In this document: positions 8,949 through 30,249 of the stretch, one piece after another
How the letters are laid out: the number at the start of each line of letters is the position of its first letter
Numbering within the stretch: the stretch's first letter is position 1
Origin: an uncultured Candidatus Rokubacteria bacterium
GTDB lineage: Bacteria > Methylomirabilota > Methylomirabilia > Rokubacteriales > DASRDR01
Assembly: GCA_963708025.1 (NCBI GenBank)
Contig: CAVPSB010000016.1
Coordinates: 1 to 64,000 of the forward strand
Direction of reading: 5' to 3'
DNA: 64,000 bases
The notes under the pieces: model-generated
Told to the model about the DNA's origin: nothing
Seen by the model: only the letters and a program-made list of their open reading frames with translations
Databases searched by the model: none
Translations under genes and position numbers: made by a program

Positions 8949-11900
8949 TCACGCTACGGCGATCGCCGCCGCGAGCCCGGGGAGGTTGACGGCGGCGATC
9001 ACGGTCGCCATGGACACGCTGATCCCGAGGTCGGCGCGGATGCGGTTCGCGAGGACGAGCGCCCCGATCGAGTCCAGTCCCAGGTCGAGGAAGGCCGTGT
9101 CGTCGCGCACCTCGGCCGCGGGAAGACCGACCATCTGGGCCACGCTCTCCCGAAGGTACTCGATGAGCTGCCCCCGCGGATCACCGCCTTTCGCGCGCTC
9201 CAGGTACGGTGTCTTGTGCGACGACCGACGCACGGCGTCGGCGGGCGGCGCGCCCCGGTGCGCCAACCGGTCCAGCAGACGCGGGCGCGTTCCGGTCGGC
9301 AGCGCGCCGAGGTACGTCTGCCGGCGTAACTGACGCACCTCGAACCCGGCGATCTCCGCGACGACGCGGCCGGCCTCGTCGAAGAGGAGCGCGTCACCGG
9401 CCTTCGACGGGGCGTCCACGGCGTAGCGGGCCCGCGCCTGTCCGTGGCACCAGAGCTGGTGGTCCCCGGGACGCTCGAAGAACGCGAAGCGGCCGATGGT
9501 GAACGGCACGTAGGCCACGCCGCCCTCGGCGAGGGCCAGCGTTTCGAACGCCCCGCCGAAGAACAGCGTCTGGAAGCACGCCTCGATCGCGCCGGGGGCC
9601 AGCGGGTAGAGGTCAGCCACTTCCGCCAGCGGGGGCGGCGCTGTCCGGGCCACCGCCTCGTTGTCCCCCTGCCAGATCGTCTCGATCCAGCGAAATGCCG
9701 ATCCGGTGTTCGCCCCGGGTGCCCATGCCAGCTCGTAGAACGCCGAGCCGCTCATGGGGAGCGTGCACCGCCGACGTAAGGCGTCGAGATCGACGGCTGC
9801 TCGGGGTGGCGCGTCCGGCAGTCGCAGCCGGCCCGTCACGTGCAGCGTCCACGCGTCGGCGTCGTGCGGCTCGGGACCGTCCGCGCGGCTCACGAGGCGC
9901 AGGCTGTAGGCGCCGTCGTCCTCGGGCGCCAGCACCACCTGGATGGTGCGCGCCCCGTCTCCAGGCAGCACCAGCGGTCGCAGGAAGCACAGCTCCTCCA
10001 GCACGCACGCACGCGGCCCGAACGCCGCTTCGACCGCCGACAGAAACAGGGTCAGGTCACTTGACGCCGCCACGACCACCGTCCCGAACAGCCGGTGATC
10101 GCCGAGGTGCGGCACTGCCCGTGGCGACAGCGTGGCCTCGAACCGGATCTCGGACGAGAACGGCAGCGACAGACGGCGCCCCAGTAGCGGCCTGGCGGGC
10201 GTTTCCACTGGCGTCGTCGTCGCCACTGGCGGATCGACCCAGTGACGCTGGCGTTCGAACGGGTAGGTCGGCAGGTGCAGGCGCCGCCGCTCATATGGGG
10301 CGTCGAAGCCGCGCCAGTCCACCGGCACGCCGCGCACGTAGAGCGTGCCCAGGCTGCGGAGGAGCGGCTCCCAGTCCGGCTCGTCCCGGCACAAGCTGGG
10401 CAGCCAGCCGTCGGCGACGTCTGGCACGCGCTCGCGTGCCATCTCTCGCAGGATCGAGTCTGGCCCGATCTCGACGACCAGCGTCACGCCGCGCACCCGG
10501 AGCGCCCGCAGCGCATCAGCGACGCGCGCTGGGTCTCCGACGTGGTCCCGCCAGTATGTCGGTGTGGCGATCTGGGTGCCGACCAGCGCGCCGGTCACCG
10601 GGGAGACGAGGTCAACGCGCGGGCGGCCGAGGCGGACCTTGCCCGCGGCCCGCTCGAAGGCGTCCCGACCTCGCGCCGCGACGAGCCGAAGGCCGTCTTC
10701 CAGCCCGATGACGCCGGCCACACAGGCGGCGGCGAGCTCGCCTTGGCCGAGTCCCAGGGCCACGTCTGGCTCGACACCCCACGCGCGCCACAGCTCGGCC
10801 AGCGCGACATGCAACGCGAAGAGCGCCGCCTCTGGAGAGGCGGGCGGCCGGCCCAGCCCGGGGTCGCGGGCGCCGAGCTCGGAGCGGTCGCGACCAGCGC
10901 CCGAAAGGGCGTCGCAGCGGTCGAGTGTCGCGCGGAAGACGGGCTGCGTGGCGCGAAGCTCGCGGCCCACGCCGGCATGGTGCGCGCCCTCTCCGGTGAA
11001 CAGGAACGCGATGACCGGCCGCGCAGCGGCCTCCACGCCTGCCTGCGCGCGCCCGGCGGTCTCACCGGCGAAGGCGGCGAGGCGCTCATGAAGGTCCTCT
11101 ATGCTCCCGGCGTCGATGGCCAGGCGGTGCTCGAACGGGGCGCGCCCGGTGTTGGCCGTGAAGCAGACATCGGCGAGAAGACCCGGGCCGGTGGCCAGGT
11201 GGTCGGCATAGCGCCGGGCTAGCTCCCTCAGCGCCGTCTCGCTGCGGGCCGACAGCGCCAGCACGTGCCGGGGCCGCTCCGGTTGGCGGGACGGCGGGCG
11301 CGGCGGGGGCGCCTCCTCGAGCACGACGTGGCAGTTCGTTCCGCCAATGCCGAGGGACGTGACGCCCGCCCGCCGGGGCGCTCCGTCCGCGCGCCACGGC
11401 GAAAGCGTCCGGACGACGAAGAACGGGCTATTCTCGAAGTCGATCGCGGGGTTGGGCGCGTCGAAGTGCAAGCTGGGGGGGATCTGGCGGTGCTGGAGCG
11501 CCAGCGCCGTTTTGATCAATCCGGCGACCCCCGCGGCCACGTCGGTGTGCCCGAGATTGGTCTTTACCGAGCCGATCCCGCAGAACCCCGTCGCGGCGGT
11601 CGCCCGACGGAATGCGGTCGTCAGTCCCTCGATCTCTATGGGATCGCCGAGCGGGGTGGCGGTGCCGTGCGCCTCGACATAGGTGACGGAGCGCGGATCG
11701 ACGCCGGCGACCGCCTGCGCGAGGGCGACGACCTCGGCTTGCCCGCGCGCGCTGGGCGCCGTGAAACTGACCTTGCCCGCCCCGTCGTTGTTGATCGCCC
11801 ACCCCTGGATCACGGCGTAGACAGCGTCGCCGGCGGCGACGGCGTCCTCGAGCCGCTTGAGCACCACGACGCCAACCCCGTCGCTGAGGACCGTTCCCCG

Positions 11901-14821: not shown

Positions 14822-15583
14822 TCATGCGCCTCCTGCGGAGCCCGCGGTCAGGCATCGACACGGCCAGGACCACTGCCAGCACGCAAGGCTGCAGCAATCA
14901 CCTCCGACGGCGATCGCGGCGGCATACCCGGACCCGGGGCTCAGTGCTTCGAGCCGCCAGCGACGCGTGTCCCCCGGGTCTTCGTCGCTCCGCAGAAGCG
15001 CGGCGGACTCTCCGAGCGAAACCTCGAACTGGTCCAGTCGAAGCCGGAGCCCTTCCCCTCTGGCCTTCGCGTAGGCCTCCTTGCGGGTCCAGCAGGCAAA
15101 GAACGCCTCGGTCTGCCCGGCGGAAGGCAGCGAACGCAGCGCCGCGACCTCGCGCGGCGAAAAGAACTGCTCGGCGATCCCGTTCTCGAGCCGTGGGTCG
15201 ATCTTCTCGACGTCGATACCGACGTCCCGGCCGCGCGCCACCGCATAGAGCGCGAGCCCGTACGAGTGGGACAGATTGAAACGCAGGTCGGCCCCCGGGG
15301 CGTCCGCCAAGAACGGCTTCCCCTGCGGCCCGTATCCGAATCTCAACGCCGCCGGCTCTCGGCGGAGGTAGCGGCCAAGAATCATCCGGAGCGCGGCGCG
15401 GCCGGCGACGAACCGCGCGCGGTCTCGGTCGAAGCGGAAGCGATCCGCCCGCGCGCGTTCGTCCGGCGAGAGGGTGGCGCGGAAACTGTCGCCGCAACCT
15501 GGCTCGTGGTCCAGCCACGCGCGCCAAACGTGGACGTGATCCCGCTCGAGGACGAGTTGGGGCGGAGGGGTCTCCCACGGCAT
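14822..15583 (-). CDS. Sfp-type 4'-phosphopantetheinyl transferase
   Basis: GKP, FNLSHS, VGIDVE, WTRKEAYAKARGEG motifs. Confidence 0.93.
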   Translation of the reverse strand: MPWETPPPQLVLERDHVHVWRAWLDHEPGCGDSFRATLSPDERARADRFRFDRDRARFVAGRAALRMILGRYLRREPAALRFGYGPQGKPFLADAPGADLRFNLSHSYGLALYAVARGRDVGIDVEKIDPRLENGIAEQFFSPREVAALRSLPSAGQTEAFFACWTRKEAYAKARGEGLRLRLDQFEVSLGESAALLRSDEDPGDTRRWRLEALSPGSGYAAAIAVGGDCCSLACWQWSWPCRCLTAGSAGGA

Positions 15584-15697
15584 GCGGGGCGCCAAGTCTT
15601 CGGCGGGGTGCAGGTGTTCCCTCCAGGTCAGAACGGCGCGCACGGCACAGCACGACGGCGACAGGCCGAAACAGAGGAGCAGATCTCGTGCCAGCCG

Positions 15698-16118
15698 GAC
15701 CATCCGGAAGCAACGAGCACCTCCTCGTCGCGGAGGGCGGTTCGAACGGAGCACGCCCCGCCTCGCCCCCTGTGTGAACTCTGCTTGCTCAAGACTGGCA
15801 AGCGGATTCACAGGCCCGGGGCACGGCTGACCGGGATGTCGAGGCTCGCCTCCGACCGGCCGGCGTGGCGGTTCGTCGACGGCGTGAAGCAGCGAGGCTC
15901 CGGTGGGACGTCCGCGAAGGTGCGGGTTCCCTCGGCCAGAGCGCCGGTCGAGGCGGGGTCCGCCGCGATGATGGCATGTGGCTTGCTAGATAGACTACGG
16001 TATCGCTTGCGATTTCCGGCCGCACGACCGAGGACGAGCGCCCCGGTTGAATGCGGACCTCGGCTACGGCGATGGCTGAACGCTCAACCACTCGCACGGA
16101 TCGCAGCGGGGCGGAACC
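15698..16118 (+). repeat. ~400 bp non-coding regulatory cassette, copy 1 (upstream of NRPS)
   Basis: Direct repeat of 23886-24281 with long identical blocks such as TGTGAACTCTGCTTGCTCAAGACTGGCA. Confidence 0.92.
15972..15987 (+). promoter_or_regulatory. Sigma54 (-24/-12) promoter
   Basis: TGGCATGTGGCTTGCT (GG-N10-GC), identical in the second cassette copy. Confidence 0.75.
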
Positions 16119-16260
16119 CAGCCGAGGTCGGGATCTTCGCGCCCGGCGCCTACCGCCGTATGGGAAGCAGGTCGATGCGGCTGCGAAACGGTCAGTCGTT
16201 CCGCTGATCGTCGACGACACTGCGCTTCGGCCCGTCGCGAGAATGGCGGTCTAACCAGGA

Positions 16261-19200
16261 GTGCGCATGGACGTCCAGGACCTCCGGCGGGAGATCTCGA
16301 AGCTCACTCCAGGCGAACGTCGCATCCTCGAGGAACGACTTCTGCGCGCGGACCCGGCTCCACGTCACGACCTGCACATTCCGCGCCGCGGCAGCTCGAC
16401 CCCCTGCCCACTCTCGTTCGCGCAGCACCGGCTCTGGTTTCTCGACCAGTACGAGCCGCAGAGCGGTGTCTACAACATCCCGGTGGCCGTGCGCCTCCAG
16501 GGCGCCCTCGACGTCAACGCCCTCCGCCGGGCGCTCGAGGCCGTCGTGGCCCGCCACGAGGTCCTCCACACCACGTTAGTGGCGCCAGACGGCGTTCCCG
16601 TCCAGGTGATCAGCGCGCCGAGCCCCTTCGACCTTCCTGTTATCGACATCGAGACCTACCCCGAGGCGGAGCGCGACGCCGCCATGCGCCTCCTGGTGAA
16701 CCAAGAAGCCGACGGCCCTTTCGATTTCGAGCGCGATCTGATGCTACGGGCTCGGCTCTTCCGCTTCGGCGACACCGACCACGTGCTCCTCCTGGTCCTC
16801 CATCACATCGCCGCCGATGGCTGGTCTTTGGGCATTCTGGCGCGTGAGCTGAGTGTGCTGTATGGCACGTACGCCACCGGACAGCCCCATCCGTTGCCCG
16901 ATCTTCCGATCCAGTACGCCGACTATGCGGTCTGGCAGCGCCAGCAGCTCACGGGTCCTGCCCTCGAAGCCGGGCTCGCCTACTGGCGTGATCGGCTCGC
17001 CGGCGCCCCCGCGCTTCTCGAACTCCCCACCGATCGGCCTCGTCCCGCCGCGCAAACCTTCGAGGGCGCCACCGAGACGGTGACCTTGCCGTCGCCGCTC
17101 TTGGAGCAACTCAAGGCCCAGAGCCGTCGGGAGGGCGTCACCCTCTTCATGACGCTCCTGGCCGCCTTCAAGACCCTCCTGTACCGGTATGCCGGCCAGG
17201 AGGACATCGTTGTCGGCACTGCCATTGCCGGCCGAACCCGTACGGAAACCGAAGGGCTCATCGGCTTCTTCGTCAACACGCTGGTCCTCCGCACCGACCT
17301 GACTGGCGCCCCCACCTTCCGTGAACTGCTCCGGCGCGTCCGCGAGGTCGCCCTGGGCGCCTACGCTCACCAGGACCTGCCCTTCGAGACGCTCGTCGAA
17401 GCACTCCAGCCCGAGCGGAGCCTCGCCTACTCCCCTGTGTTCCAGACCATGTTCATCCTCCAGAATGCCCCCGGCAGCGCGCTGGCCCTCCCGGGTCTGA
17501 CCGTGACGCCCGTCGAGCTGGACCGGCGGACCGCCAAGTTCGACCTGAGCCTCTCCGTCGAGGAGACCCCCCGCGGCCTCCGGGCCGAGCTCGAGTACAG
17601 CCGCGACCTCTTCGACGCGCCCACGGTCACGCGCATGTTGCGACATTTCGAGACCCTGCTCGCCGGAGCTGTGACCGAGCCGGATCGGCGCGTCTCCCAT
17701 CTTCCACTCCTAGAGGCCGCCGAGCGCCGCCAGGTTCTCGTGGAATGGAACCTGACCCGCGTCGACAACCCCCGCGATGTCGGCCTGCATCAGTTGTTCG
17801 AGGTCCAGGTGGAACGCACCCCCGACGCCGTGGCCATGGAATGCGCGGGCATGCGCCTCACCTACCGGGAGCTCAACCGGGAGGCTAACCGGCTCGCCCA
17901 CTACCTGCGGGGCCTGGGTGTGGGTCCCGACGTTCCGGTGGGAATCTGCCTGGAACGCTCCCTCGACGCCGTCGTGGGGATTCTCGGGATCCTGAAGGCC
18001 GGGGGCGCCTACCTGCCCCTGGATCCGGCCTACCCAAGGGACCGACTCGAGCTCATGCTGGAGGACGCCCGGCCTCCCGTCCTCGTGACCCAGGAGGCCT
18101 GTCGGCCCGAGCTTCCATCCACCCACGCCGCCGTAGTCTGCCTCGACGCCGACCGCGAGGCCATCGGTCGCCAGCCGGACCGGAATCCCACGGGTGGCCC
18201 GACCCCCGCAAACGCCGCCTATGTCCTCTACACTTCCGGATCAACAGGGCGCCCCAAGGGCGTGGTGGGACTTCACCGCGGGGCGGTGAATCGCTGCGCT
18301 TGGATGTGGCGGACCTTTCCCTTCGCTCCTTCGGAGGTGTGCTGCCAAAAGACTTCCCTGAGCTTCGTCGATTCTGTCTGGGAGCTCTTCGGACCGCTGC
18401 TTCAGGGCATCCGCACCGTCATCATTCCCGACGAGGTGGTGAAGGATCCCGGCCGGCTCCTCGAGACGCTCGCGGCGCATCACGTGAGCCGCATCGTCCT
18501 GGTACCGTCTCTCCTGCGGGTCCTCCTGGGGGCGTTCCGCGACCTCGCCCGACGCGTTCCGGACCTCCGCTTGTGGGTCACCAGCGGTGAGGCGCTGACC
18601 AAGGAGCTGTGCGACCGTTTCTACGCGAGCGTGCCCGACCGTATCCTGCTCAACCTTTATGGATCCTCGGAAGCCTCGGGAGACAGCACTTGGCACGACA
18701 CGCGGGCCAGCGCGGCGCGCCCCGACCCGCCCATCGGCCGCCCCATCGACAACACGCGGATCTATGTCCTCGACGCGTATCTCCAGCCGAGTCCGGTGGG
18801 AGTTCCGGGGGAGCTCTACATCGGCGGCGACGGACTGGCTCAGGGTTACCTCCACCAGCCGGACCTGACGGCTGCTCGCTTCATCCGCGACCCGTTCGCC
18901 GACATTCCTACCTCCAGGCTCTACCGCACCGGCGACCGCGCCCGATACCGGCCCGACGGGAACCTCGAGTATCTCGGCCGCACGGACCACCAAGTGAAGG
19001 TTCGGGGCTTCCGGATCGAGCTGGGCGAAATCGAAGCGGTCCTGGCGCAACATCCCGCGGTCAAGGAGAGTGTCGTGGTGACCTCTGATCACCAACGTGG
19101 CGGTCCCCAACTGATCGCCTACCTGGTCAGCCTGCCCGACACCCGACTCGAGATCGAGGACCTGCAACGGGTCCTGAGGCAGAAGCTGCCGGAACACATG

Positions 19201-19710
19201 ATCCCATCCGACTTCATCGTCCTCGACGCGTTCCCGCTCACGCCGACTGGCAAGCTGGCCCGCAATCGGCTGCCGTTGCCCGCCCCGTGGTCCCGTGGCC
19301 GCAGCGAGTCTCGAGCCCCGGCCAGTCGGATGGAGATCGCTCTGGCCGACATCTGGAAGGACGTGCTCGGGGTCACGGACGTGGGTGCCTATGACCGCTT
19401 CTTCGACCTCGGCGGGCACTCGCTCCAGTCCATGCAGGTGATCGCGCGGATCGAAGCCCATCACGGGCTCAGACTGTCGCCCCGCGACCTGCTGACCCAG
19501 AATCTCGCCCAGCTCGCGGCACTCTGCGACGAGCACCTGGGACAGCCCGCTGCCCCGGCGAGACCCGCAACCGCTCCCCGGGACGGTCTGCTGCGCACGG
19601 TGGCCAGGCTCGTCGGGGCCCAGTTCCGGCGCGGGCCGGCACCGTCCGCCCGACGCAGTGGTACGGTGGGCGGCGACGAGCCCGCACCTCCGGTCGAAGG
19701 CCATGAATGA
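16261..19710 (+). CDS. NRPS module C-A-T, predicted beta-alanine-activating
   Basis: C HHIAADG; A4 SFVDSVW, NLYGSSE, YRTGD; T LGGHSL; no TE domain. Confidence 0.93.
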   Translation: MRMDVQDLRREISKLTPGERRILEERLLRADPAPRHDLHIPRRGSSTPCPLSFAQHRLWFLDQYEPQSGVYNIPVAVRLQGALDVNALRRALEAVVARHEVLHTTLVAPDGVPVQVISAPSPFDLPVIDIETYPEAERDAAMRLLVNQEADGPFDFERDLMLRARLFRFGDTDHVLLLVLHHIAADGWSLGILARELSVLYGTYATGQPHPLPDLPIQYADYAVWQRQQLTGPALEAGLAYWRDRLAGAPALLELPTDRPRPAAQTFEGATETVTLPSPLLEQLKAQSRREGVTLFMTLLAAFKTLLYRYAGQEDIVVGTAIAGRTRTETEGLIGFFVNTLVLRTDLTGAPTFRELLRRVREVALGAYAHQDLPFETLVEALQPERSLAYSPVFQTMFILQNAPGSALALPGLTVTPVELDRRTAKFDLSLSVEETPRGLRAELEYSRDLFDAPTVTRMLRHFETLLAGAVTEPDRRVSHLPLLEAAERRQVLVEWNLTRVDNPRDVGLHQLFEVQVERTPDAVAMECAGMRLTYRELNREANRLAHYLRGLGVGPDVPVGICLERSLDAVVGILGILKAGGAYLPLDPAYPRDRLELMLEDARPPVLVTQEACRPELPSTHAAVVCLDADREAIGRQPDRNPTGGPTPANAAYVLYTSGSTGRPKGVVGLHRGAVNRCAWMWRTFPFAPSEVCCQKTSLSFVDSVWELFGPLLQGIRTVIIPDEVVKDPGRLLETLAAHHVSRIVLVPSLLRVLLGAFRDLARRVPDLRLWVTSGEALTKELCDRFYASVPDRILLNLYGSSEASGDSTWHDTRASAARPDPPIGRPIDNTRIYVLDAYLQPSPVGVPGELYIGGDGLAQGYLHQPDLTAARFIRDPFADIPTSRLYRTGDRARYRPDGNLEYLGRTDHQVKVRGFRIELGEIEAVLAQHPAVKESVVVTSDHQRGGPQLIAYLVSLPDTRLEIEDLQRVLRQKLPEHMIPSDFIVLDAFPLTPTGKLARNRLPLPAPWSRGRSESRAPASRMEIALADIWKDVLGVTDVGAYDRFFDLGGHSLQSMQVIARIEAHHGLRLSPRDLLTQNLAQLAALCDEHLGQPAAPARPATAPRDGLLRTVARLVGAQFRRGPAPSARRSGTVGGDEPAPPVEGHE

Positions 19711-20518
19711 CTCCCCTGGCGCTGACCACGCCTTCTACTTCCCCGAATCGGGCGGTCCGCTCTTCGGCTGCTACCACGCGCCGTTGCGGCCAAACGCTGA
19801 GGCCGCCACGGTCGTGCTCTGCCAGCCGGTCGGACATGAATACATCCGCGCTCATCGGACCTTCCGGCAGCTTGCAATCGCGCTGGCGCGCGCCGGGTTC
19901 GCCGTGCTCCGCTTCGACTACTCGGGAACGGGAGATTCCGCCGGTGACCCGGCTGACGGGGGCATCCCCGAGTGGCTGCGGGACGTGCACGCCGCGAGCC
20001 GGGAAGGCCGGAGGCGGTCCGGTCGCGAGCGAACCTGCTTCGTGGGCGCCCGCCTGGGAGCCACGCTGGCGTTCCTCGCGGCGGCCCGCGAGGGGGTCGC
20101 TGACCGCGTGGTTCTGTGGGACCCCGTGATTCGCGGCCGAGATCATCTCCGCGAGCTGAGCGATACGCACCAGGCTCATCTGCGCCTCTTGCCCGGGTGG
20201 ACGCCGTCCGGCAACGGGTCTCCGGCAGCGGTGGAGTACATGGGGTTTCCGTACTCCACGGCCCTCCGGCAACAGATCGAGAAGCTCGATATCGCGACCT
20301 GGGCGAGTCCGTGTGCGCCACGTACCCTGTTGCTCGAGACCGAGCCGGCCGCGACATCACCCCGCCTGCTTGACCTGTGCGGAGCCGAGGCCGCGCAAAT
20401 GGCGTACCGGGCGGTTCCGGGCCCCCGGGTGTGGGCGCAGGGCGAGTTTCGCCTGCTGGTGCCCCATCCGAGCGTCTTCGACGAGATCGCGGCATGGCTC
20501 AGCGCGACTCCACGCTGA
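19703..20518 (+). CDS. Alpha/beta hydrolase, exosortase-A-associated hydrolase 2-like (GxRxG elbow)
   Basis: LRFDYSGTGDSAG, VGARLGA, VLWDPV; overlaps the NRPS stop. Confidence 0.8.
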   Translation: MNDSPGADHAFYFPESGGPLFGCYHAPLRPNAEAATVVLCQPVGHEYIRAHRTFRQLAIALARAGFAVLRFDYSGTGDSAGDPADGGIPEWLRDVHAASREGRRRSGRERTCFVGARLGATLAFLAAAREGVADRVVLWDPVIRGRDHLRELSDTHQAHLRLLPGWTPSGNGSPAAVEYMGFPYSTALRQQIEKLDIATWASPCAPRTLLLETEPAATSPRLLDLCGAEAAQMAYRAVPGPRVWAQGEFRLLVPHPSVFDEIAAWLSATPR

Positions 20519-21414
20519 GAGAGGTCGCCGTGCGGTTCGGCCGCGAAGACTCCCTCTGCGGCGTGGTGTCCTACCCGCCGGATCGGCGGGAGGACGCGCC
20601 GGGCGTTCTCCTGCTCAACGCCGGCATGGTCCATCGCGTCGGGCCGAATCGCTTCTACGTCAACCTGGCTCGCGCGCTCGCCGGACACGGTTTCCCGGTC
20701 CTCCGCTTCGACTTCTCAGGGATCGGAGACAGTGAGCCACGAACGGACAGCCTCCGCTTCGAGCGAAGCGCCGTCGAGGAGTCGCAGGCCGGGATGGACC
20801 TGCTCGGCGACATGGGGTTGAGCCGTCTGTTCGTGCTGGCGGGACTCTGCAATGGTGCGGAGATGTCCTTCAAGACTGCGTGCGCTGATCCCCGGGTGCT
20901 CGGCCTGGCGCTGATCAACCCCCAGCGATACCTGACGGAGCCAAGCCGGGAATTGGTCGCGCACGTGGAAGGCCGCACGGAGGCGGACTTCTACTGGCGC
21001 ACGGCGCGCTTCAAGCCCCAAAGCTGGTTCAAATTCGTCCGCGGCCGCTCCGACTACCGGGCGGTCTTCCGCGCGCTTGGCCGGAAGCTGGGCAGCCTCC
21101 TGGGCAACGACGAACGAGTCCCAGCCGAGCATCCGGATGCGGCGGCGTTCGCCCAGCTGTATCGGCGGGGTGTGAGGCTCCTCCTGCTCTTCTCGGAGGG
21201 CGACCCTGGGATGGCGTATCTGCGCACGATCGCCGGCGACCGCGTGGCGGCGTGGCGCGCGAGCGGACAGCTGGGTCTCGAGGTGATCCCGGGTGCCGAT
21301 CACACGCTGACGCCCCTTGCGAGCCAGGATCGCGTCCGGCAGTCGATCGTCAGATGGATTCTGACGGTGCCGCGTCGCCTTCCCGATCCGCAGACCCCGC
21401 TATCGCGCGCATGA
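20494..21414 (+). CDS. Alpha/beta hydrolase, exosortase-A-associated hydrolase 1-like (GxCxG elbow)
   Basis: HRVGPNR, LRFDFSGIGDS, GLCNGA, C-terminal GADHT. Confidence 0.8.
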   Translation: MAQRDSTLREVAVRFGREDSLCGVVSYPPDRREDAPGVLLLNAGMVHRVGPNRFYVNLARALAGHGFPVLRFDFSGIGDSEPRTDSLRFERSAVEESQAGMDLLGDMGLSRLFVLAGLCNGAEMSFKTACADPRVLGLALINPQRYLTEPSRELVAHVEGRTEADFYWRTARFKPQSWFKFVRGRSDYRAVFRALGRKLGSLLGNDERVPAEHPDAAAFAQLYRRGVRLLLLFSEGDPGMAYLRTIAGDRVAAWRASGQLGLEVIPGADHTLTPLASQDRVRQSIVRWILTVPRRLPDPQTPLSRA

Positions 21415-21669: not shown

Positions 21670-23583
21670 ATGGAGCTGAGCTCAGCAACTCAATCAATTG
21701 ACTCGATCGGTCAGCTTTTGTGCTGGCAGGGCCGATCTTCGCCCCAGGCACCAGCGGTTGAGGCTCCCGACCGCAGACCGCTCCCCTACTCCGGCCTGAT
21801 GAGCCAACTCGATCATGTGGCAGGAGTACTTTTGCAGGCGGGTCTGGACCGAGACGATCGCATTGCTGTGGTGCTGCCCGACGGACCGGAAATGGCGACT
21901 GCCTTCCTGACCATTGCCGCTTGTGCCACCTTCGCTCCCCTGAATCCGGCATTTGGTGCGGAGGACTTTGAATTCTATCTAACCGACTTGCACGCCAAGG
22001 CTTTGGTGCTGCAAGCGGGTCAGGAGACGCCGGCGCGCGAGGTGGCCCGGAGACGTGGAATTCAGGTCCTCGAGTTGGTGCCCAGGCTCGAGGCGGAAGC
22101 CGGCGTGTTTGATCTCCAGGGGATGGGCAATGCGGCGAAGGTCAAACCCGGTCACCTTCTCCCTGCTCAGCCCGAGGACATCGCGTTGTTCCTACATACT
22201 TCGGGAACGACCTCGCGACCCAAGGGGGTGCCTCTCACCCAGCACAATCTTTGCAGTTCCGCCCGGCATATCGCAGCCACGCTCGCCTTGACTTCCGATG
22301 ATCGGAGTCTGTCGATCATGCCCTTGTTCCATATCCACGGACTCGTTGGCGTGATCCTCTCCTCGATCACAGCAGGGGCGAGCGTCATGTGTCCGTCGGG
22401 ATTCGACGCGTCGCGGTTCTTCGGGTGGCTGGAGGTGCTGCGACCAACGTGGTACAGCGCTGTACCGACCATGCATCAGGCGATCCTGGCGCATGCCGGG
22501 ATCAACCACGGTATGCTCAAGCGTTCTCCTCTGCGGTTTATTCGCTCCTCGTCATCGGCGCTGCCACCACAGGTCATGCGCGATCTGGAAAGCGCATTCG
22601 GGGCGCCGGTCATTGAGTCCTACGGCATGACTGAGGCCTCCCACCAGATGGCCAGCAATCCCCTGCCACCGGGCGTGCGCAAGCCCGGCTCCGTCGGTCT
22701 GGCCGCAGGTCCCACCAAGGTTGCCATCATGGACGAGCACGGTCAACTGCGGGAAACCGGGGAAACCGGAGAAATCGTCATTCAGGGGCCAAACGTCACC
22801 CTGCAATACGAGAACAACCCCGAGGCAAACCGGGCGACCTTCGTCAACGGATGGTTCCGGACCGGGGACCAGGGCCATCTCGACGCCGAGGGCTACCTGT
22901 TCATCACCGGCAGGCTCAAGGAAATCATCAACCGCGGGGGCGAAAAGATCGCACCGCGAGAGATTGACGAAGCCTTGATGAATCACCCGGGAGTGCGACA
23001 GGCCGTGGCCTTTGCCGTGCCGCACCCCACGCTAGGAGAAGACGTCGCGGCCGCAATCGTACCGAAGGAAGGCCACACGCCGGCCGAGTCGGAACTCCGG
23101 CAGGCGATGGCGAGGCATTTGCCGCAGTTCAAAGTGCCGAGCCGGATCGTGATCCTTAATGAAATACCGATGGGTCCGACCGGGAAGATCCAGCGGATTG
23201 GGTTGGCGGACCGGCTCGCACGAGAGTTGGCCTCGGCGTACGAACCTCCTGAAGAAGGATTGGAGACACTGGCAGCAGCCACGATCGAACAGTTGCTTCA
23301 ACGATCGTCCATCGGACGTCATGACAATTTCTTCGCCCTGGGAGGCGACTCCATACGGGCGACTCAAGTGCTGGTTCGCCTGGGCGATACCCTGGGCTGT
23401 GAGATCCCAAGCGTCCTTTTGTTCGATCATCCCACGGTGGCGCTCCTGGCAGCGAAATTGGCCCGGCTCCAGGAAGAGGAGATCGAATCTCTCGCAGCCG
23501 AACTGGCCAAGCTGCCTCCCGAGGAAGCGGCTCGACTGTTGGGCGAAGTCAGCGAGAACAACCCACGAGCGCGGATCCGGTAA
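21670..23583 (+). CDS. Oxalyl-CoA synthetase-like (AAE3/Pcs60-type) acyl-AMP ligase fused to a carrier (T) domain
   Basis: LHTSGTTSRPKGVPL, PLFHIHG, YSAVPTMHQ, RFIRSSSS, YGMTEASHQMASNPLP, GPTGKIQR; C-terminal FFALGGDSI. Confidence 0.85.
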   Translation: MELSSATQSIDSIGQLLCWQGRSSPQAPAVEAPDRRPLPYSGLMSQLDHVAGVLLQAGLDRDDRIAVVLPDGPEMATAFLTIAACATFAPLNPAFGAEDFEFYLTDLHAKALVLQAGQETPAREVARRRGIQVLELVPRLEAEAGVFDLQGMGNAAKVKPGHLLPAQPEDIALFLHTSGTTSRPKGVPLTQHNLCSSARHIAATLALTSDDRSLSIMPLFHIHGLVGVILSSITAGASVMCPSGFDASRFFGWLEVLRPTWYSAVPTMHQAILAHAGINHGMLKRSPLRFIRSSSSALPPQVMRDLESAFGAPVIESYGMTEASHQMASNPLPPGVRKPGSVGLAAGPTKVAIMDEHGQLRETGETGEIVIQGPNVTLQYENNPEANRATFVNGWFRTGDQGHLDAEGYLFITGRLKEIINRGGEKIAPREIDEALMNHPGVRQAVAFAVPHPTLGEDVAAAIVPKEGHTPAESELRQAMARHLPQFKVPSRIVILNEIPMGPTGKIQRIGLADRLARELASAYEPPEEGLETLAAATIEQLLQRSSIGRHDNFFALGGDSIRATQVLVRLGDTLGCEIPSVLLFDHPTVALLAAKLARLQEEEIESLAAELAKLPPEEAARLLGEVSENNPRARIR

Positions 23584-23663
23584 CGAAGCCTGACCGCACA
23601 CCCCCTCTGCTCCCACGGTTGCGCGCCCTCTCGGCGGAACATCGTGGCCAATTGGGACGGCGC

Positions 23664-24281: not shown

Positions 24282-24531
24282 TAGTTGAGCCTGGCCGCGT
24301 CCGACCGGCGTCCGCTCGGCTGCGCCTCGCCGATCCGCCGAGCCGGCGTGCCGCGCGTCCGACCTCCAGGGAACGCGCGCGTGGCATCCGCCCGGCCGCG
24401 CACGCGACGCGACGAAGGTGCACCGCGCGCTGGTCGAGCACCAGGGACCGTGACGGCACCCACGCTGTCGGGCAGGCACACGGCAGAGCGGCGCGGGCCG
24501 GCCGAGGCACCGAATCCGGACGGAGGCAGCT

Positions 24532-27500
24532 ATGACGACGAACGGGAGCAAGCGGCCAGGCACGATCGCCGTCGTCGGGATGGCCCTCCGGGTACCCGGT
24601 GCGACGACCCCGGAGCAGTTCTGGCGAAACATCGTCGGCAAGGTCGATTCGCTGACCCGCACGTCGGTGGACGCGCTCCGGGAGGCCGGGGTGTCGGAGG
24701 AACTCCTCGCCGACCCTCGGTTCGTTCCGGTCAAGCCGCTCCTGTCGGACGTCGAGTACTTCGATGCGGCCTTCTTCGACATGACGCCGTTCGAGGCCGA
24801 GCGGACGGATCCGGCGCATCGCCTCTTCCTCGAGTGCGCCGTCGAGGCCCTGGAGCGGGCCGGCATCGCGCCGGGGCCCGGGGCGCCCGTCACCGGCGTG
24901 TTCGGGGGGGCGGGAGGACAGGCCTACTTCGACCGCAACCTCTCTCTCCGAGGCGACGACCTCGACGATCCGGTCGTGGGGCTCCCGCTGCGGCTCGGGA
25001 ACTCGCTCGACTTCCTCCCCGCGCGGGTCTCTTTCAAGCTCGGCCTGGTGGGACCGAGCTTTGCGGTACAGGCGGCCTGCGCCACCTCGCTCATCGCCGT
25101 CCACCTCGCCGTGCAGAGCCTGCGCCGCGGCGAGTGTCAGGTGGCGCTGGCGGGCGGCACTTCCGTGGAAGTGCCGCACGTCGCCGGTTACCTCGCGGGC
25201 GTCAACGGTATGCTGTCGGACAGTGGATGGCTCCGGCCATTCGACGCCGGCGCCGACGGGACGGTCTTCGGCTCCGGCGTCGGCGTCGTCGTGCTTCGAC
25301 CGCTGGAGGACGCGCTCGCGCAGGGGAACCCGATTCACGCGGTCATCCTCGGCTCGGCGACCACCAACGACGGCGCGCCCGCGGACAAGGCGAGCTTCAT
25401 CGCGCCGAGCGCGACGGGGCAGACGGTGGCAGTAGCGCGCGCGCTCGCCGAAGCCGGCGTGGACCCGGAGACCATCGGCTACGTCGAGGCCCACGGCACG
25501 GGCACTCGGCTGGGCGATCCCATCGAGGTGCAGGCGCTCACCGAGGTGTATCGCCGCCACACGGCGCGGACGGGATTCTGCACCCTGGGCTCCGTCAAAG
25601 CCAACGTCGGTCACCTGCGGGCGGCGGCCGGCGTGGTGGGCCTGATCAAGGCGTGCTTGGCGCTGGCGCATGGCACGCTCCCGCCCGCGCTCCACTTCGA
25701 GCGGCCGAATCCCGGCATCGACTTCTCCGCAACCCCCTTCATCGTGGGCACCGAGGCGCGCCCGTGGAACTCGACGAGCCATCCACGGCGCGCCGCCGTG
25801 TCGGCCTTCGGCTTCGGGGGCTCGAACGCCCACATGGTGCTGGAGGCGCCTCCGGCGCGTCCCGAATCGACGCGCGCCGGACGGCGGCACCTCCTCGTCG
25901 TCTCGGCCCGCACGGACCGGGCGGTCCGGCGGCGGCTCCGGGACCTGCAGGCGTATCTCGACGACCACCCGGCGGTCTCCCGGGCGGACGTCGCGCATAC
26001 GCTCCGAGCGGGTCGCCAGGCCTTTGCCCACCGGGCGGCTCTCGTCGTCAACGAAGAGGCGCCGGCGGCACCGTTCGGGGAAGATTGCGTCGTCTCCGGC
26101 GTCGCGGTTTCGAGTGACCGCCCCGTCGTGTTCCTGTTTCCCGGCCAGGGTGCCCAGCGACCGGGGACGGGACACGGGCTCTACGCCGCCGAGGCGGTCT
26201 ACCGCGAGACCGTCGACCATTGCGCCGCGATTCTCGAGCCGGAGCTCGGCCTCGACATCCGGACGCTCCTTCACCCCGTGTCGGCGGAGGCGGAGGCGGC
26301 AGCGCACGACGCCCTACGGCAAACTCGCCAGGCGCAGCCGGCGCTGTTCACGGTGGCGTACGCCCTGGCCCGCCTGGTCATGAGCTGGGGCGTCACACCG
26401 CGCGCGATGCTGGGCCACTCGATCGGTGAGTATGTGGCGGCCTGCCTGTCCGGTACGTTCTCTCTGCCCGACGCACTGCGGCTCGTCGCCCTCCGCGGCC
26501 GGCTCATGCAGGAGTGCGAGCCCGGGGCGATGCTCGCGGTCTTCCTACCCGCGGAGGAGCTGCGACCGCGCCTCGGGGAGCTGGAAGTCGCTGCGGTCAA
26601 CGCGCCATCGGTGGTCGTCGTCTCTGGCCCGGAGGCGGCCATCGCCAGATTCGCCGAGGAGCTGACGGCCGAGGGCACCGGGCACCGCCGGCTGCTGACC
26701 TCGCACGCCTTCCACTCGCGGATGATGGAGCCGGTGCTGCCGGAGTTCCGCCTCGCGGTTGCCCGCACGAGACGTCGGCCTCCCCGGATCCCGTTCGTGT
26801 CGAACGTGACCGGCGCCTGGATCACGGCCGGCGAGGCGGTGGATCCTGATTACTGGGCCCGGCAGCTGCGGCAGGTCGTGCGATTCTCGGACGGAATCAC
26901 CACGCTCGCTGGCCTGGGCGAGCCGCTCTTCCTGGAACTGGGACCCGGCCGAGGTCTCACCGGCCTCCTCGGCCAGCACGGGAAGGCCGCGAGCGCGATC
27001 GCAGCGCTGGACGGGCGCCGCGCGGACGCGGCCGACGACGAGGCGCTCGCGCTCCTCGAGACCCTGGGCTGGCTCTGGTGTCAGGGCGTCCGGGTGGACT
27101 GGCCAGCGTTCGACGCCGGACGGCCGGCCCGTAAGCTCGTGCTTCCCACGTACCCGTTCCAGCGTCAGCGCTACTGGCTCGATCCGGCGCGCCAGGTCCG
27201 GGCTGTCGGCCCAGCGAACTCGTCGGGGGAGCCCGCCCGGGCGCCCGACGCCGGGCTCGGGCTCTACCGGGTCGGCTGGCGGGAGCAGGCACTCACCGCC
27301 CCGGCGTCGTCAGTGAACGAGGGGACGTGGCTCGTGTTCGAGGACGCCCGCGGGCTCGGGGAGGCCGTGGCCCGGCGCCTCGCGACGATGGGTGCGCGGG
27401 TCGTGCGGCTCCGAGCCGGAGACGCCTACGAGGCCGACGGACCCGACGCGATGCGGGTGCGGCCGGGATCGAAGGTCGACCTCGAGGCAGTGCTGGCCAC

Positions 27501-30249
27501 GCCGTCCGTGGGGCGCGCGGGCGGTCCGCTCCGCGTCCTCCACCTGTGGGCGGTGACCGGGACGGAGGGCCCGCACAACAGCGTCGAGGCGTTCGAGCAC
27601 GCGACTCTGAACGGGTTCCACACGCTGCTGGCTCTCGTCCAGGCGGCGGACGAGTGCGGGCTTGCGGACGCGCTGCGCGTGGTGGCGGTCGCCGACGCGC
27701 TGTGCACCCTCGACGGCGAGGCGGGCCCGCTCCACGCCGAGAAGGCCGCACTCCTGGGCCCCTGTCGCGTCATCCCCCAGGAGGTGCCGGGGCTCTCGAT
27801 GCGGTGTCTCGACGTTCCGGTCCTCGGGCCAGGGCCGGCGCCGGTCTGGCTGATCGACGCGATCGTCGACGAGGCATGCCGGGACGACCCGGCGCCGGTC
27901 GCCGCCCTGCGGTCGGAGGGACGCTACGTGGAGGAGCTGGCGCCCCTGCCGAGGCTCCCGGTGGGCCGCCTCCGGCTCCGCGACGGCGGAACCGTGCTGA
28001 TCACGGGCGGTCTGGGCGGCCTCGGCCTCGAGGTGGCCCGCGACCTGTTCGAAGCGGCCCGGGCCCGAATCGTCCTTCTCTCCCGGTGGACGCCACCGCA
28101 GCGGGAAGCGTGGCCGGCCCGCGCCCAGGAGGACGACAAGATCGGTCAGGCGCTCCGCAGGGTGCTCGCGCTCGAGGCACGGGGCGCCGAAATACTGATC
28201 GTGACCGCGGACGCCGGTGACCCCGATGCCGTGGCGGGCGCGATCGACCAGGCCCGCCGGCGGTTCGGTCCGCTTCACGGGGTGGTGCACGCCGCCGGAG
28301 TGGTCATCGACGAGCCGGCGCTGGACAAGACGCGGGAGGTCGCGGACCGGGTATTCGCAGCCAAGGTGCGCGGCGCTTTCATCCTCGAGCGCCTCCTGGC
28401 GGAGACGCCGCTCGATGTCTTCGTCCACTTCTCGTCGATCGCGGCCCAGGTCCCCGGCGCGGGCCGCGTGGATTACGCCGCGGCCAACGCGGTACTCGAC
28501 GCCCTGGCCCGGCGCCCGGGGCCGGCCTGCCACGGGCTCAGGTGCGCGATCGGCTGGGACGCCTGGCGCGAGGTCGGCATGGCGGCACGCTACGCGGCAC
28601 GCACCGCCACGCTCGGCGTCACCGAAGTCCAGGGGTACACAAAGCGAGAGCTCGGCGAGCGCGGCCTGGGCACCGCCAGCGACGCGGCGCGGGCACCCTT
28701 CCGGCTTCGCCTGGCGCGTCCGGGCGACCTCGCCTCGCTCGCGCCAGAGCCCGCCAGCCCCGGTGCCCCGCGGTCCGGCGAGGTGCAGATCGAGGTGGTC
28801 GCGGCGGGCCTGAACTTCCGCGACGTCCTGTCGGCGATGGGTCAGCTGCCGGGCGCCGAAGACGGAGTGGGTGAGCTGGGCAGCGAGTGCAGTGGCCTGG
28901 TGAGCGCCGTCGGGGAGGGCGTCGAGGGCCTCCAGGTCGGCGATGCAGTCGTCGCGGTTGCCAGCGCGTGCTTCGCGACGCACGTCACCACCACCGCGGA
29001 TCTCGTGGCCCCGCTGCCGGCAGGGCTTGCCTTCACGGAGGCGGCGGGCGTGCCGATCGCCTTTCTCACGGCAGACTATGGGCTGAACCACCTCGCCCGC
29101 CTCGAGCGCGGAGAGCGCGTCCTCATCCACTCGGCCTCCGGCGGCGTCGGGCTCGCCGCCGTGCAGCTCGCCCGCGCCGTCGGGGCCGAGATCTTCGCCA
29201 CCGCCGGCAGCCCGGACAAGCGCGAGTACCTCCGCCGGCTCGGGATCGAGCACGTGATGGACTCGCGCTCGCTCGACTTCGCCGCCGAGGTCCGGGAGCG
29301 CACGGACGGTGAGGGTGTGGACGTCGTGCTCAATGCCCTGGCCGGCGACTACATCGGACGGAGTCTCGAGCTGCTTCGCCCGTTCGGGCGGTTCGTCGAG
29401 ATCGGCAAGCGCGACATCTACGCCGACACGCCCCTGGGCCTGTCGCCATTTCGCAGGAACCTGGCGTACTTCGCGGTGGACCTCGGGGTGATGCGAGCTC
29501 GGCGGCGCCCGCTCCTGGCAAAGCTGCTCCGCGGGCTCTTGGATCGGTTCGCGCGGCACGAGCTGGAGCCCGTGCCGACCACCGCGGTGCCCATCGAGGA
29601 AGCGCCGCGCGGCTTCGAGTACCTTGCCCGGGCCCGGCACATCGGCAAGGTCGTGCTGACGTTCGGCGGCGCTGGTCCCGCTCCGGCGCAACGCCGCGAC
29701 AAGACGCTGGACGAGCGCTTCCGCGAGGTCTACGGCGAGGGCATTTCGGTCGCCCGCGGACTGGAAACGCTCCGACGCCTGCTGTCGTCGGACGAGACGC
29801 CCCCGCACGTCCTGGTCACCTCGCGGCGGATCGCCGCAAGCACCATCGCGCCGCGGCCGTCCGAGATCCAATCCAATCGCGCCCGCCGGGGTCTCGACAC
29901 CGCCTACTTGGCGCCGACGGTCCCCGACGAGGAGGTGCTCGTCCGCCTGTGGCAAGACATGCTCGGCGTCGAGCCGGTCGGTATCGACGACGACTTCTTG
30001 GCGCTGGGCGGGAACTCGATCACGGCCATTCAGATCCTCTACGGCGTGCGGCGGGAGTTCGGAGTCAGGCTGCCCGCCAATGCGGTCTTCGACAACCCAA
30101 CCGTCGCCCGCCTCGCGGCGATCATCGGCGGGGAGCTCCGCCGCCGAAGGGCGGGCGGCAGCGACGTCGACTTCCTGGCGAAGGAGATGGCGGCGCTCGA
30201 TGAGGGCACGACGGCGCGCCTCCTCAAGGAGGTGCGTGGGCAGGGCTGA
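24532..30249 (+). CDS. Type I PKS module PKS2: KS-AT(malonyl)-KR with inserted ER-ACP, no DH
   Basis: GGAGG RBS; KS VQAACATS/HGTGT/NVGH; AT GHSIG and HAFH; KR GGLGGLG and DYAAAN; ER LIHSASGGVG; ACP LGGNS. Confidence 0.93.
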   Translation: MTTNGSKRPGTIAVVGMALRVPGATTPEQFWRNIVGKVDSLTRTSVDALREAGVSEELLADPRFVPVKPLLSDVEYFDAAFFDMTPFEAERTDPAHRLFLECAVEALERAGIAPGPGAPVTGVFGGAGGQAYFDRNLSLRGDDLDDPVVGLPLRLGNSLDFLPARVSFKLGLVGPSFAVQAACATSLIAVHLAVQSLRRGECQVALAGGTSVEVPHVAGYLAGVNGMLSDSGWLRPFDAGADGTVFGSGVGVVVLRPLEDALAQGNPIHAVILGSATTNDGAPADKASFIAPSATGQTVAVARALAEAGVDPETIGYVEAHGTGTRLGDPIEVQALTEVYRRHTARTGFCTLGSVKANVGHLRAAAGVVGLIKACLALAHGTLPPALHFERPNPGIDFSATPFIVGTEARPWNSTSHPRRAAVSAFGFGGSNAHMVLEAPPARPESTRAGRRHLLVVSARTDRAVRRRLRDLQAYLDDHPAVSRADVAHTLRAGRQAFAHRAALVVNEEAPAAPFGEDCVVSGVAVSSDRPVVFLFPGQGAQRPGTGHGLYAAEAVYRETVDHCAAILEPELGLDIRTLLHPVSAEAEAAAHDALRQTRQAQPALFTVAYALARLVMSWGVTPRAMLGHSIGEYVAACLSGTFSLPDALRLVALRGRLMQECEPGAMLAVFLPAEELRPRLGELEVAAVNAPSVVVVSGPEAAIARFAEELTAEGTGHRRLLTSHAFHSRMMEPVLPEFRLAVARTRRRPPRIPFVSNVTGAWITAGEAVDPDYWARQLRQVVRFSDGITTLAGLGEPLFLELGPGRGLTGLLGQHGKAASAIAALDGRRADAADDEALALLETLGWLWCQGVRVDWPAFDAGRPARKLVLPTYPFQRQRYWLDPARQVRAVGPANSSGEPARAPDAGLGLYRVGWREQALTAPASSVNEGTWLVFEDARGLGEAVARRLATMGARVVRLRAGDAYEADGPDAMRVRPGSKVDLEAVLATPSVGRAGGPLRVLHLWAVTGTEGPHNSVEAFEHATLNGFHTLLALVQAADECGLADALRVVAVADALCTLDGEAGPLHAEKAALLGPCRVIPQEVPGLSMRCLDVPVLGPGPAPVWLIDAIVDEACRDDPAPVAALRSEGRYVEELAPLPRLPVGRLRLRDGGTVLITGGLGGLGLEVARDLFEAARARIVLLSRWTPPQREAWPARAQEDDKIGQALRRVLALEARGAEILIVTADAGDPDAVAGAIDQARRRFGPLHGVVHAAGVVIDEPALDKTREVADRVFAAKVRGAFILERLLAETPLDVFVHFSSIAAQVPGAGRVDYAAANAVLDALARRPGPACHGLRCAIGWDAWREVGMAARYAARTATLGVTEVQGYTKRELGERGLGTASDAARAPFRLRLARPGDLASLAPEPASPGAPRSGEVQIEVVAAGLNFRDVLSAMGQLPGAEDGVGELGSECSGLVSAVGEGVEGLQVGDAVVAVASACFATHVTTTADLVAPLPAGLAFTEAAGVPIAFLTADYGLNHLARLERGERVLIHSASGGVGLAAVQLARAVGAEIFATAGSPDKREYLRRLGIEHVMDSRSLDFAAEVRERTDGEGVDVVLNALAGDYIGRSLELLRPFGRFVEIGKRDIYADTPLGLSPFRRNLAYFAVDLGVMRARRRPLLAKLLRGLLDRFARHELEPVPTTAVPIEEAPRGFEYLARARHIGKVVLTFGGAGPAPAQRRDKTLDERFREVYGEGISVARGLETLRRLLSSDETPPHVLVTSRRIAASTIAPRPSEIQSNRARRGLDTAYLAPTVPDEEVLVRLWQDMLGVEPVGIDDDFLALGGNSITAIQILYGVRREFGVRLPANAVFDNPTVARLAAIIGGELRRRRAGGSDVDFLAKEMAALDEGTTARLLKEVRGQG

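Follow-up and report, generated by a model that had tools for sequence, protein, structure and literature searches.

In the epothilone pathway the dehydration that belongs to module 4 is carried out by the dehydratase (DH) of the next module, the DHs of the curacin pathway perform vinylogous dehydrations, and AviM-type proteins, with the order ketosynthase (KS)-acyltransferase (AT)-DH-acyl carrier protein (ACP), are iterative synthases. Among trans-AT polyketide synthases (PKSs), the type A dehydrating bimodule joins a KS-ketoreductase (KR)-ACP module to a following KS0-DH-ACP module, with hangtaimycin HtmA1 as an example (PMC8456789). Mupirocin MmpF, OzmQ_KS1 and MgsF_KS4 have been described as degraded cis-AT remnants within trans-AT systems; the DH activity missing from the mupirocin pathway has never been located, and FabA or FabZ was assumed to provide it (PMC10098928). 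The myxoglucamide pathway has a DH that is noncanonical (PMC13638107), and formation of the 4-amidopentadienoate warhead depends on a DH that acts beyond a single dehydration (preprint 10.64898/2026.09.17.752105). Here we analyze a window of 64,000 nucleotides (positions 1 to 64,000 of contig CAVPSB010000016.1, assembly GCA_963708025.1) from an uncultured Candidatus Rokubacteria bacterium, which encodes PKS1 and PKS2, the sole type I PKS genes of an 8.17-Mb genome. PKS1 has a DH and a dead AT; PKS2 has an AT, a KR and an enoylreductase (ER) and no DH. The reading that we tentatively favor, with well under even confidence, is that the PKS1 ACP is malonylated in trans and that a dehydratase acting in trans, for which the PKS1 DH is the best candidate, serves the PKS2 ER.

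Domain mapping with Pfam, the check suggested in an earlier sequence-only reading of the window, reproduces both architectures as that reading had described them, and the active-site motifs agree. The parts of the two proteins, and the FabD that was likewise correctly recognized, are as follows (psiKR, pseudo-KR; FAS II, type II fatty acid synthase).

8949..12632, minus strand: PKS1, 1227 aa, with KS, dead truncated AT, DH and ACP
11313..12605, minus strand: PKS1 KS (Pfam, motifs), 78% identical to the KS of its relative P0004
10323..11009, minus strand: PKS1 AT remnant (Pfam, tblastn, motifs)
9318..10199, minus strand: PKS1 DH (Pfam, motifs, structure-sequence match)
9168..9317, minus strand: PKS1 DH-ACP linker, the scar of a deleted psiKR and KR (post-KR linker)
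8952..9167, minus strand: PKS1 ACP, LGLDSIG (Pfam, motifs)
24532..30249, plus strand: PKS2, 1905 aa, KS-AT-psiKR-KR-ER-ACP with a C-terminal tail
26128..27021, plus strand: PKS2 AT (Pfam, GHSIGE and HAFHS)
27988..28569, plus strand: PKS2 KR catalytic domain, TGGLGGLG, with Lys, Ser, Tyr and Asn present
28570..28710, plus strand: PKS2 KR-ER junction, a DH deletion scar of 47 residues from which ~265-280 residues were deleted
28711..29667, plus strand: PKS2 ER, medium-chain dehydrogenase/reductase (MDR) type, NADPH motif intact, 93.7% identical to P0123
48304..49248, minus strand: FabD, encoded in the housekeeping FAS II operon; another candidate for trans loading of the PKS1 ACP

In PKS1, Pfam finds a KS, an AT confined to profile positions 2-119 of 319, a DH (PF21089 and PF14765) and an ACP, and no KR. 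The open reading frame (ORF) at 8949-13592 overstates the protein, its first 320 codons being another frame over the upstream adenylation-thiolation (A-T) gene; PKS1 starts at the GTG at 12632, which overlaps the stop codon of that gene (GTGA). The Cys-His-His triad of the KS is intact (TACSSS, EAHGTAT, NLGHT), as is the triad of PKS2, and only PKS2 has active AT motifs of its own. In the PKS1 AT, of which ~230 residues are kept, GLGQG (10740-10754) stands where GHSxG is expected, Ser being replaced by Gly, and an exact in-frame deletion of 84 residues has removed the small subdomain together with HAFH; in tblastn against the P0004 AT, the two flanking segments abut at gene nucleotides 1968/1969 (window positions 10665/10664). 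Contigs from two other metagenome studies span the junction without a gap (X1 record 1, 10578-12548, 34 mismatches; X8 record 25, 10135-10749), and the deletion is therefore not an assembly artefact. A frameshift origin for the scrambled AT segment was considered and rejected, as no remnant matched in any other frame. The DH keeps its His (HRLFG), has Glu in place of Asp (IEACFQ) and shows TG where the YGP motif is expected. In the protein atlas it matched generic PKS DH clusters only.

In PKS2, Pfam finds a KS, an AT, a KR (residues 1153-1346), an ER (1394-1710) and an ACP, and no DH, with the motifs AACATS, EAHGTGT and NVGHL in the KS, GHSIGE and HAFHS in the AT, TGGLGGLG and YAAANA in the KR and SGGVGLAA in the ER. 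From its motifs we take the AT to be of the malonyl type. An assignment of KR stereochemistry from the LDD region was dropped, that region being variable across the family. To judge from alignments and phylogeny, PKS2 is a DH-deleted derivative of a large KS-AT-KR-DH-ER-ACP family. Proteins 54-61% identical to it (P0125, P0126, the L040 ORF, P0130 and P0143; ~2130-2160 aa) have, between their KR and ER, a DH of ~265-280 residues, and Pfam returned the order KS-AT-psiKR-KR-DH-ER-ACP in all five proteins checked (P0125, P0126, P0130, P0143 and the G233:C161 ORF). When all proteins <2800 aa in the sets of PKS2 relatives were typed locally with phmmer, 82 had KR-DH-ER and 4 had the KR followed directly by the ER. 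This reaction-ordered family includes P0124-P0170 and others, as well as L040:5008-11490 (G233:C161). PKS2 shares with it the full-length similarity, the psiKR-KR pair before the ER and a nested position in the tree, and lacks the DH itself. The 11-residue stub EVQGYTKRELG at the junction is what remains of the DH C terminus; the likewise DH-less P0123 (JGI, 1921 aa), 89% identical to PKS2, holds 19 residues more there. A tree of 86 KR+ER rows requires two DH losses, one in PKS2 and P0123, whose sisters P0124 and P0125 have a DH (support 99), and one in P0265 and P0274, which group with the DH-bearing P0141 (support 98).

The ER is the most conserved domain of PKS2 when compared with P0123: the KS is 92.5% identical, the AT 92.3%, the KR 91.8%, the ER 93.7%, the psiKR 87.4% and the linkers 72-86%. 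Across 302 DH-containing pairs, ER identity minus KR identity has a mean of +1.6 (standard deviation, 4.8). In the PKS2 lineage the difference runs from +2.3 to +7.4 (PKS2/P0123, +2.3; PKS2/P0124, +5.8), and in the other DH-less lineage it is -16.8 for P0274/P0141 and -13.8 for P0265/P0274, with the NADPH motif of P0274 broken (AAGGVG to APEGVG). These identities indicate that the ER of the PKS2 lineage is held by purifying selection despite the DH loss and that the ER of the independent DH-less P0274 lineage is decaying.

In the reading that we favor, PKS1 would still condense, because its triad is intact, it has a loader of its own and its branch length is normal; a PKS1 that condenses with a dead AT would therefore need malonyl transfer in trans, its ACP being charged by the PKS2 AT or by FabD. 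A PKS2 ER that still sees an enoyl substrate would in turn need a dehydratase in trans, acting on the β-hydroxyacyl chain of the PKS2 ACP, and the best candidate for it would be the PKS1 DH. The AT loss in PKS1 and the DH loss in PKS2 may have been tolerated since the partner protein carried a working copy; as far as the alignments go, both losses are lineage-specific and fall exactly where the partner holds that copy. The KR that PKS1 lacks would stand outside this complementation. Earlier, the two proteins had been proposed to complement each other in trans throughout; the trans-loading and trans-dehydration half of that idea is plausible, given the dead PKS1 AT, the conserved ER and a sole PKS-type DH, and its KR half found no support. 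That two unrelated single-module cassettes met and then underwent reciprocal loss, leaving the two proteins as an obligate pair whose two ACPs share one AT and one DH, we consider unlikely. Were it so, this would be a cis-AT system caught becoming a domain-sharing, trans-type one, with P0274, whose lineage lacks a partner and whose ER decays, as a natural negative control.

A PF14765 search of the genome matched the PKS1 DH only, which makes this domain the only in-island and, by this profile, the only PKS-type dehydratase candidate of the genome. FabZ/FabA (PF07977) gave 0 matches in the genome, whose rated completeness is 99.67%, and with TIGR01750 just two matches came up, both weak and sub-threshold, on another contig beside a KS-like ORF (L008; G000:C31:165418-167844); the same FabA/FabZ searches matched 9-10 of 14 control genomes. 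A search result without FabZ and FabA is unusual for a genome of this rated completeness. On the loading side, PKS1 has no active AT in its vicinity other than the PKS2 AT and FabD; the 6.5-34 kb region contains no free-standing AT, FabD being the nearest.

The relatives of PKS1 place its missing KR in a different light from its dead AT. The closest proteins, P0004-P0008, are 62-65% identical to PKS1, have the architecture KS-AT-DH-KR-ACP and carry source labels of Gemmatimonadales metagenome-assembled genomes (MAGs). Relative to them PKS1 has changed GHSIGE to GLGQGE and lost the whole psiKR and KR, with the ACP kept. Their own KR is dead: TDGxSSQGQ replaces TGGxGxLG, with loss of the NADPH glycines, and the catalytic Lys is lost (APK to AGA) in all five, and YAAAG replaces YAAAN in the four that reach the motif, P0006 ending before it. 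In P0004-P0008 a full-size dead KR is kept beside a conserved His/Glu DH. We built a FastTree phylogeny of the KS-to-DH region with 98 rows, drawn from the 120 matches listed plus 4 locus ORFs after removal of rows that had no DH match or no KS match reaching 380 aa. PKS1 groups with P0004, P0006 and P0007 (support 100), and this group is sister to ten KR-less rows (support 100; joint support 99). In all 13 clade members examined the DH site keeps His, has Glu for Asp and has TG for the GP of YGP; Asp is found in 7 of 9 outgroups. Two cassettes in which an A-T gene precedes a KS-AT-DH-ACP gene, L129/L051 (Nitrospirota MAG) and L060 (Arenicellales chromosome), belong with it, and the two genes are fused in L124. 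The A-T that precedes PKS1 is 48.6% identical to the A-T of the L129 and L060 cassettes, and all share GFSGAV in place of FDxS, so that the Asp is absent, and NGLGATECG. Adenylation domains ordinarily follow the Asp235 rule. Specificity codes could not be extracted from the A* domains, since the A5 anchor fails; the missing FDxS Asp is all that is usable. PKS1 has the tree position, the His/Glu/TG site and the upstream A*-T of this A*-T-primed KS-AT-DH-ACP clade and lacks its active malonyl-type AT: full-length AT profile matches were found in P0004, P0007, L129, L051, L060 and L124, and GHSIGE with HAFHS was read in P0004, P0005, P0007 and P0016. The clade may be akin to iterative non-reducing KS-AT-DH-ACP synthases of the AviM/CalO5 type. 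On its 3' side the L129/L051 cassette continues with genes for a P450 and another A-T, then for a xanthine-dehydrogenase-like Mo enzyme and an amidohydrolase.

With the KR dead in the nearest relatives and absent from the sister clade, the KR loss of PKS1 is a clade trait and not evidence of complementation. By the same token, a PKS1-type DH is independent of a KR on the same protein, and we conclude from these comparisons that the independence is clade-wide. Of the genomes that hold L051 and L060, searched for PKS-borne KR/ER, one gave 0 matches and the other none but stand-alone oxidoreductases of 340-400 aa. These results bear directly on the idea of one full reciprocal loop, in which the PKS2 AT, KR and ER and the PKS1 DH form a single reductive loop for both ACPs. 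The domain sets are complementary, the PKS2 KR and the PKS1 DH are the only PKS KR and DH of the genome, the ER is conserved, and trans-AT dehydrating bimodules are an established case of a KR module that cooperates with a DH module (PMC8456789). However, relatives whose KR is dead, a partner-less sister clade without KR and the uniform His/Glu/Thr site argue that the PKS1 DH has no need of the PKS2 KR, a point on which the sequence-only reading is not supported; docking elements were not found in PKS1 or PKS2, and the operons diverge. We therefore regard the full loop as improbable.

The AT death of PKS1 (Ser to Gly plus the 84-codon deletion) is, by contrast with the KR loss, private to the PKS1 lineage. 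Its remnant has relaxed (57.6% identity for PKS1/P0004 vs 70.7% for P0004/P0007), and the DH has not followed (66.7% vs 65.6%), though the PKS1 KS is the more diverged one. In the PKS1 lineage, then, as the alignments indicate, a dead KR was excised and the AT was killed, and KS, DH and ACP stay conserved. Three JGI fragments that are 92-96% identical to PKS1 (P0376, P0377 and P0382) are likewise KR-less, and each has a different DH-ACP linker indel; P0376 holds 25 extra linker residues that match, read by eye, the C-terminal end of the relatives' KR. Judged from these differing linker scars, erosion of PKS1 is still under way. One may ask whether the island is simply a decaying, non-producing one that is losing domains, as its several in-frame deletions, the variation of scars among near-identical relatives, the dead PKS1 AT and assembly frameshifts elsewhere (in FabG) would allow. 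Yet both genes are open, over 3.7 kb and 5.7 kb, every catalytic motif that remains is intact, linkers change faster than catalytic domains, the PKS1 terminal branch is not accelerated (0.28 vs 0.16-0.26 in its sisters), and metagenomes of four studies still carry the island at 96-99.7% identity. Simple decay thus has the lowest probability of the explanations considered here, and we give it hardly any credence.

A further explanation starts from the same dead AT, which would leave the PKS1 ACP unloaded. In a relay like that of the dehydrating bimodules, PKS2 would extend and reduce, and the non-elongating PKS1 would use its KS to move the β-hydroxyacyl chain to its own ACP for dehydration, as type A bimodules place KS-KR-ACP before KS0-DH-ACP; KS0 domains, however, are Cys-Asn-His (PMC8456789), and PKS1 has the full Cys-His-His triad. 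Translation of PKS1 is also coupled to that of its own A*-T loader, which in L124 is fused to the KS, and a relay leaves the conserved PKS2 ER unexplained. It is very unlikely in our judgment.

The distribution of the two genes was followed in genomes and metagenomes. Among 251 genomes of the phylum, a tally that includes four genomes flagged as unpublished, there is no full-length PKS1 ortholog, and the island as a unit was not found in the other 250; the best PKS1 matches in the phylum are plain KS-AT-KR-ACP proteins (G210:C105 and G142:C361) and a KS-AT-ACP-aminotransferase (G163:C20). PKS1 found nothing above 56% identity in the genome and metagenome contig collections, in which the contigs of P0004-P0008 were not recovered. 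In eight metagenome runs, which come from five studies and are of bog, wetland and soil wherever a habitat is labelled, 27-45% of the sampled PKS1 words are present. Four of these runs, from four studies, were mapped over 8949-28900, with depth in 30/30 bins in X1, X5 and X6 and in 29/30 in X8, and the long pieces listed for X1 and X8 lie on both PKS1 and PKS2 at 96-99.7% identity. Among the 32 records listed (2,664 more exist), no contig bridges the whole PKS2 KR-ER junction or the whole PKS1 DH-ACP linker. X1 and X5 have loose contig ends at 28667. As to the co-occurrence of the two architectures, suggested earlier as a check of their coupling, both genes are present in same-lineage metagenome contigs, and both cassette types stand alone in other genomes.

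Several observations weigh against the reading that we favor. A distance of 11.9 kb separates PKS1 from PKS2, the operons diverge, each PKS has a loader to itself, and neither has an N-terminal docking region, merely 9-11 residues preceding each KS. The metagenome co-occurrence reflects one species-level lineage and is thus not independent support for coupling; members of the PKS2 family occur without a PKS1-type gene (e.g., G233), and the PKS1 DH clade is present without a PKS KR/ER partner in G251 and G252 (4.7-Mb chromosome). Because such clade members have no PKS KR/ER partner, the native job of a PKS1-type DH would be something else, and its Glu/Thr site may reject an ordinary β-hydroxyacyl-ACP. 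The ER could be fed by an already unsaturated starter acid or by one of nine MaoC-type hotdog dehydratases matched in the genome, and its conservation could reflect a structural role.

Two independent lines with no interplay between PKS1 and PKS2 are an explanation that we regard as doubtful and still weigh seriously. FabD, which is present, would load the PKS1 ACP, and the DH would carry out the KR-independent reaction typical of its clade; PKS2 would make a β-hydroxyacyl chain, and its ER would act on an unsaturated starter from the FadD-like A-T, an alternative also named in the sequence-only reading, or be kept for architecture. Each PKS follows a loading gene in its own operon, both cassette types stand alone elsewhere, and the DH site is noncanonical throughout the PKS1 clade. 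If the ER were purely structural, however, one would not expect it to keep its NADPH motif intact and to remain more conserved than any other domain, given the decay of the P0274 ER; moreover, the AT loss and the DH loss are each confined to the single lineage that combines the two cassettes.

The two genes belong to what the base composition suggests is an acquired mosaic island (6496-34273). The G+C content of the window is ~70%; third-codon-position G+C (GC3) is 0.71-0.89 in the genes of 6.5-34.3 kb and 0.92-0.97 in flanking genes, except for a glutamine synthetase ORF (0.82), and it is this contrast that suggests acquisition. The lowest island values are those of the FadD-like A-T gene (0.71) and of the gene at 30430-32499 (0.74). 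We describe the 6.5-34 kb region, on these grounds, as a compositionally foreign hybrid nonribosomal peptide synthetase (NRPS)-PKS island that holds two single-module lines. Its other genes are the following (C, condensation domain; PPTase, phosphopantetheinyl transferase).

6496..8823, minus strand: A*-T didomain gene (Pfam AMP-binding and PP-binding, NCBIfam adenylation type), longest ORF 775 aa
12629..14722, minus strand: A*-T loading didomain for PKS1 (Pfam, NCBIfam)
14822..15811, minus strand: Sfp/HetI-type PPTase (Pfam, NCBIfam), first gene of the minus-strand operon
16261..19710, plus strand: NRPS module C-A-T (Pfam, NCBIfam), with the only condensation domain of the island
19658..20518, plus strand: alpha/beta hydrolase (Pfam, NCBIfam)
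20377..21414, plus strand: alpha/beta hydrolase (Pfam, NCBIfam)
21670..23583, plus strand: FadD7-like acyl ligase fused to an ACP (Pfam, NCBIfam), the presumed PKS2 loader

Line 1 is the minus-strand operon of PPTase, A*-T, PKS1 and a last A*-T, which by alignment is a 44% identical paralog of the A-T that precedes PKS1; line 2, the divergent plus-strand operon, contains the C-A-T module, the two hydrolases, the acyl-ligase-ACP and PKS2. The 950-bp stretch 5' of PKS2 (23584-24531) has no convincing ORF and no codon-position GC pattern, and an Rfam scan of 23500-24600 gave no match. The FadD-like A-T (23450-23583) and PKS2 (30130-30246) end in similar C-terminal tails, LAxExAxLxxExxARLLxEV, common to P0123, P0125 and P0126, and the shared tail may be a docking or recruitment motif. 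Convergent with PKS2, the minus-strand gene at 30430-32499 encodes a 689-aa protein with a GINT1_N-like domain and a weak formyltransferase N-terminal match, which may connect a glycan or lipid acceptor with the island. The hydrolase pair (19658..21414) matches TIGR03101 hydr2_PEP and TIGR03100 hydr1_PEP weakly, both below cut-off. The hyd2 and hyd1 pair recurs in L203 (G210:C241), directly 3' of a carrier domain and ahead of a PPTase, and in L201 (G109:C34) and L204 (G108:C24) the two matches share one stop-free frame and are apparently fused. In the FAS II operon, FabG (47316-48226, minus strand) is spread over three frames by two frameshifts, the gene being broken or the assembly holding indel errors.

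If the favored reading is true, the island shows how reciprocal loss can turn cis-AT modules into a trans-acting PKS architecture, with intermediate stages visible in the 230-residue dead AT and in KR and DH deletion scars that differ between near-identical populations. Neighboring genes with in-frame domain losses are a natural test case for domains that work across separate proteins, and PKS1 and PKS2 are a small, tractable pair for testing how a DH or an AT recognizes a foreign ACP, a central obstacle in PKS engineering. Two families came to light for which we found no description: the reaction-ordered KS-AT-KR-DH-ER-ACP proteins, and the A*-T-primed KS-AT-DH-ACP proteins with a KR-independent His/Glu DH. 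In the open PMC and bioRxiv literature, the exact strings "KS-AT-KR-DH-ER-ACP" and "KR-DH-ER-ACP" with "polyketide" returned no paper, and "KS-AT-DH-ACP" with "adenylation" returned fungal or tool papers only.

Curacin module CurJ contains an active KR. The CurJ DH (PDB 3kg8, 5tz6) is the best solved-structure match of the PKS1 DH (E 4e-44, 154 bits; the next match scores 99 bits). The usual DH motif, GYxYGPxF, carries a Tyr; CurJ and PKS1 share the His motif, and both lack the Tyr at the aligned position (HLGQSF in CurJ, NTGSAF in PKS1), whereas the Glu of PKS1 corresponds to an Asp in CurJ (LVDSCFQ). The best solved match of the PKS2 ER is mycocerosic acid synthase (PDB 5bp4, 9d2z; E 7e-99), which belongs, like the PKS2 type, to the single fully reducing cis-AT modules. 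Synthases of that type have the canonical order DH-psiKR-ER-KR. In 9d2z the ER lies at 1414-1747 of 2124; the order in the PKS2 family is psiKR-KR-DH-ER, and PKS2 is without the DH. The exosortase-A-associated set (TIGR03098, TIGR03100 and TIGR03101) supplies the best or near-best NCBIfam matches of the island hydrolases and A domains, although all island scores are below the curated cut-offs.

The nearest parallels for the pair as a whole come from trans-AT systems. Like a trans-AT module, PKS1 has no functional cis AT; unlike one, it has no cluster-encoded trans-AT, and its KS falls outside a trans-AT clade, a placement that is partial in that the tree held no trans-AT reference sequences: the PKS1 KS-to-DH region nests among AT-bearing KS-AT-DH proteins. 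With MmpF, OzmQ_KS1 and MgsF_KS4 it shares a truncated AT without the Ser-His dyad behind an active KS, and those remnants are served in trans (PMC10098928). It differs from them in keeping ~230 AT residues, in an island without a discrete trans-AT gene and in a KS that groups with cis-AT KS-AT-DH modules. The likeness to the type A bimodule lies in the combination of a DH-less KR module with a KR-less DH module that is not loaded by an AT of its own. In contrast to that bimodule, PKS1 and PKS2 are both of cis-AT descent, the PKS1 KS is Cys-His-His rather than Cys-Asn-His, PKS2 carries an ER, and the two are not consecutive modules, being non-colinear, in divergent operons and with separate loaders. 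We regard the PKS1/PKS2 arrangement as a new variation on known split-module and trans-acting domain logic.

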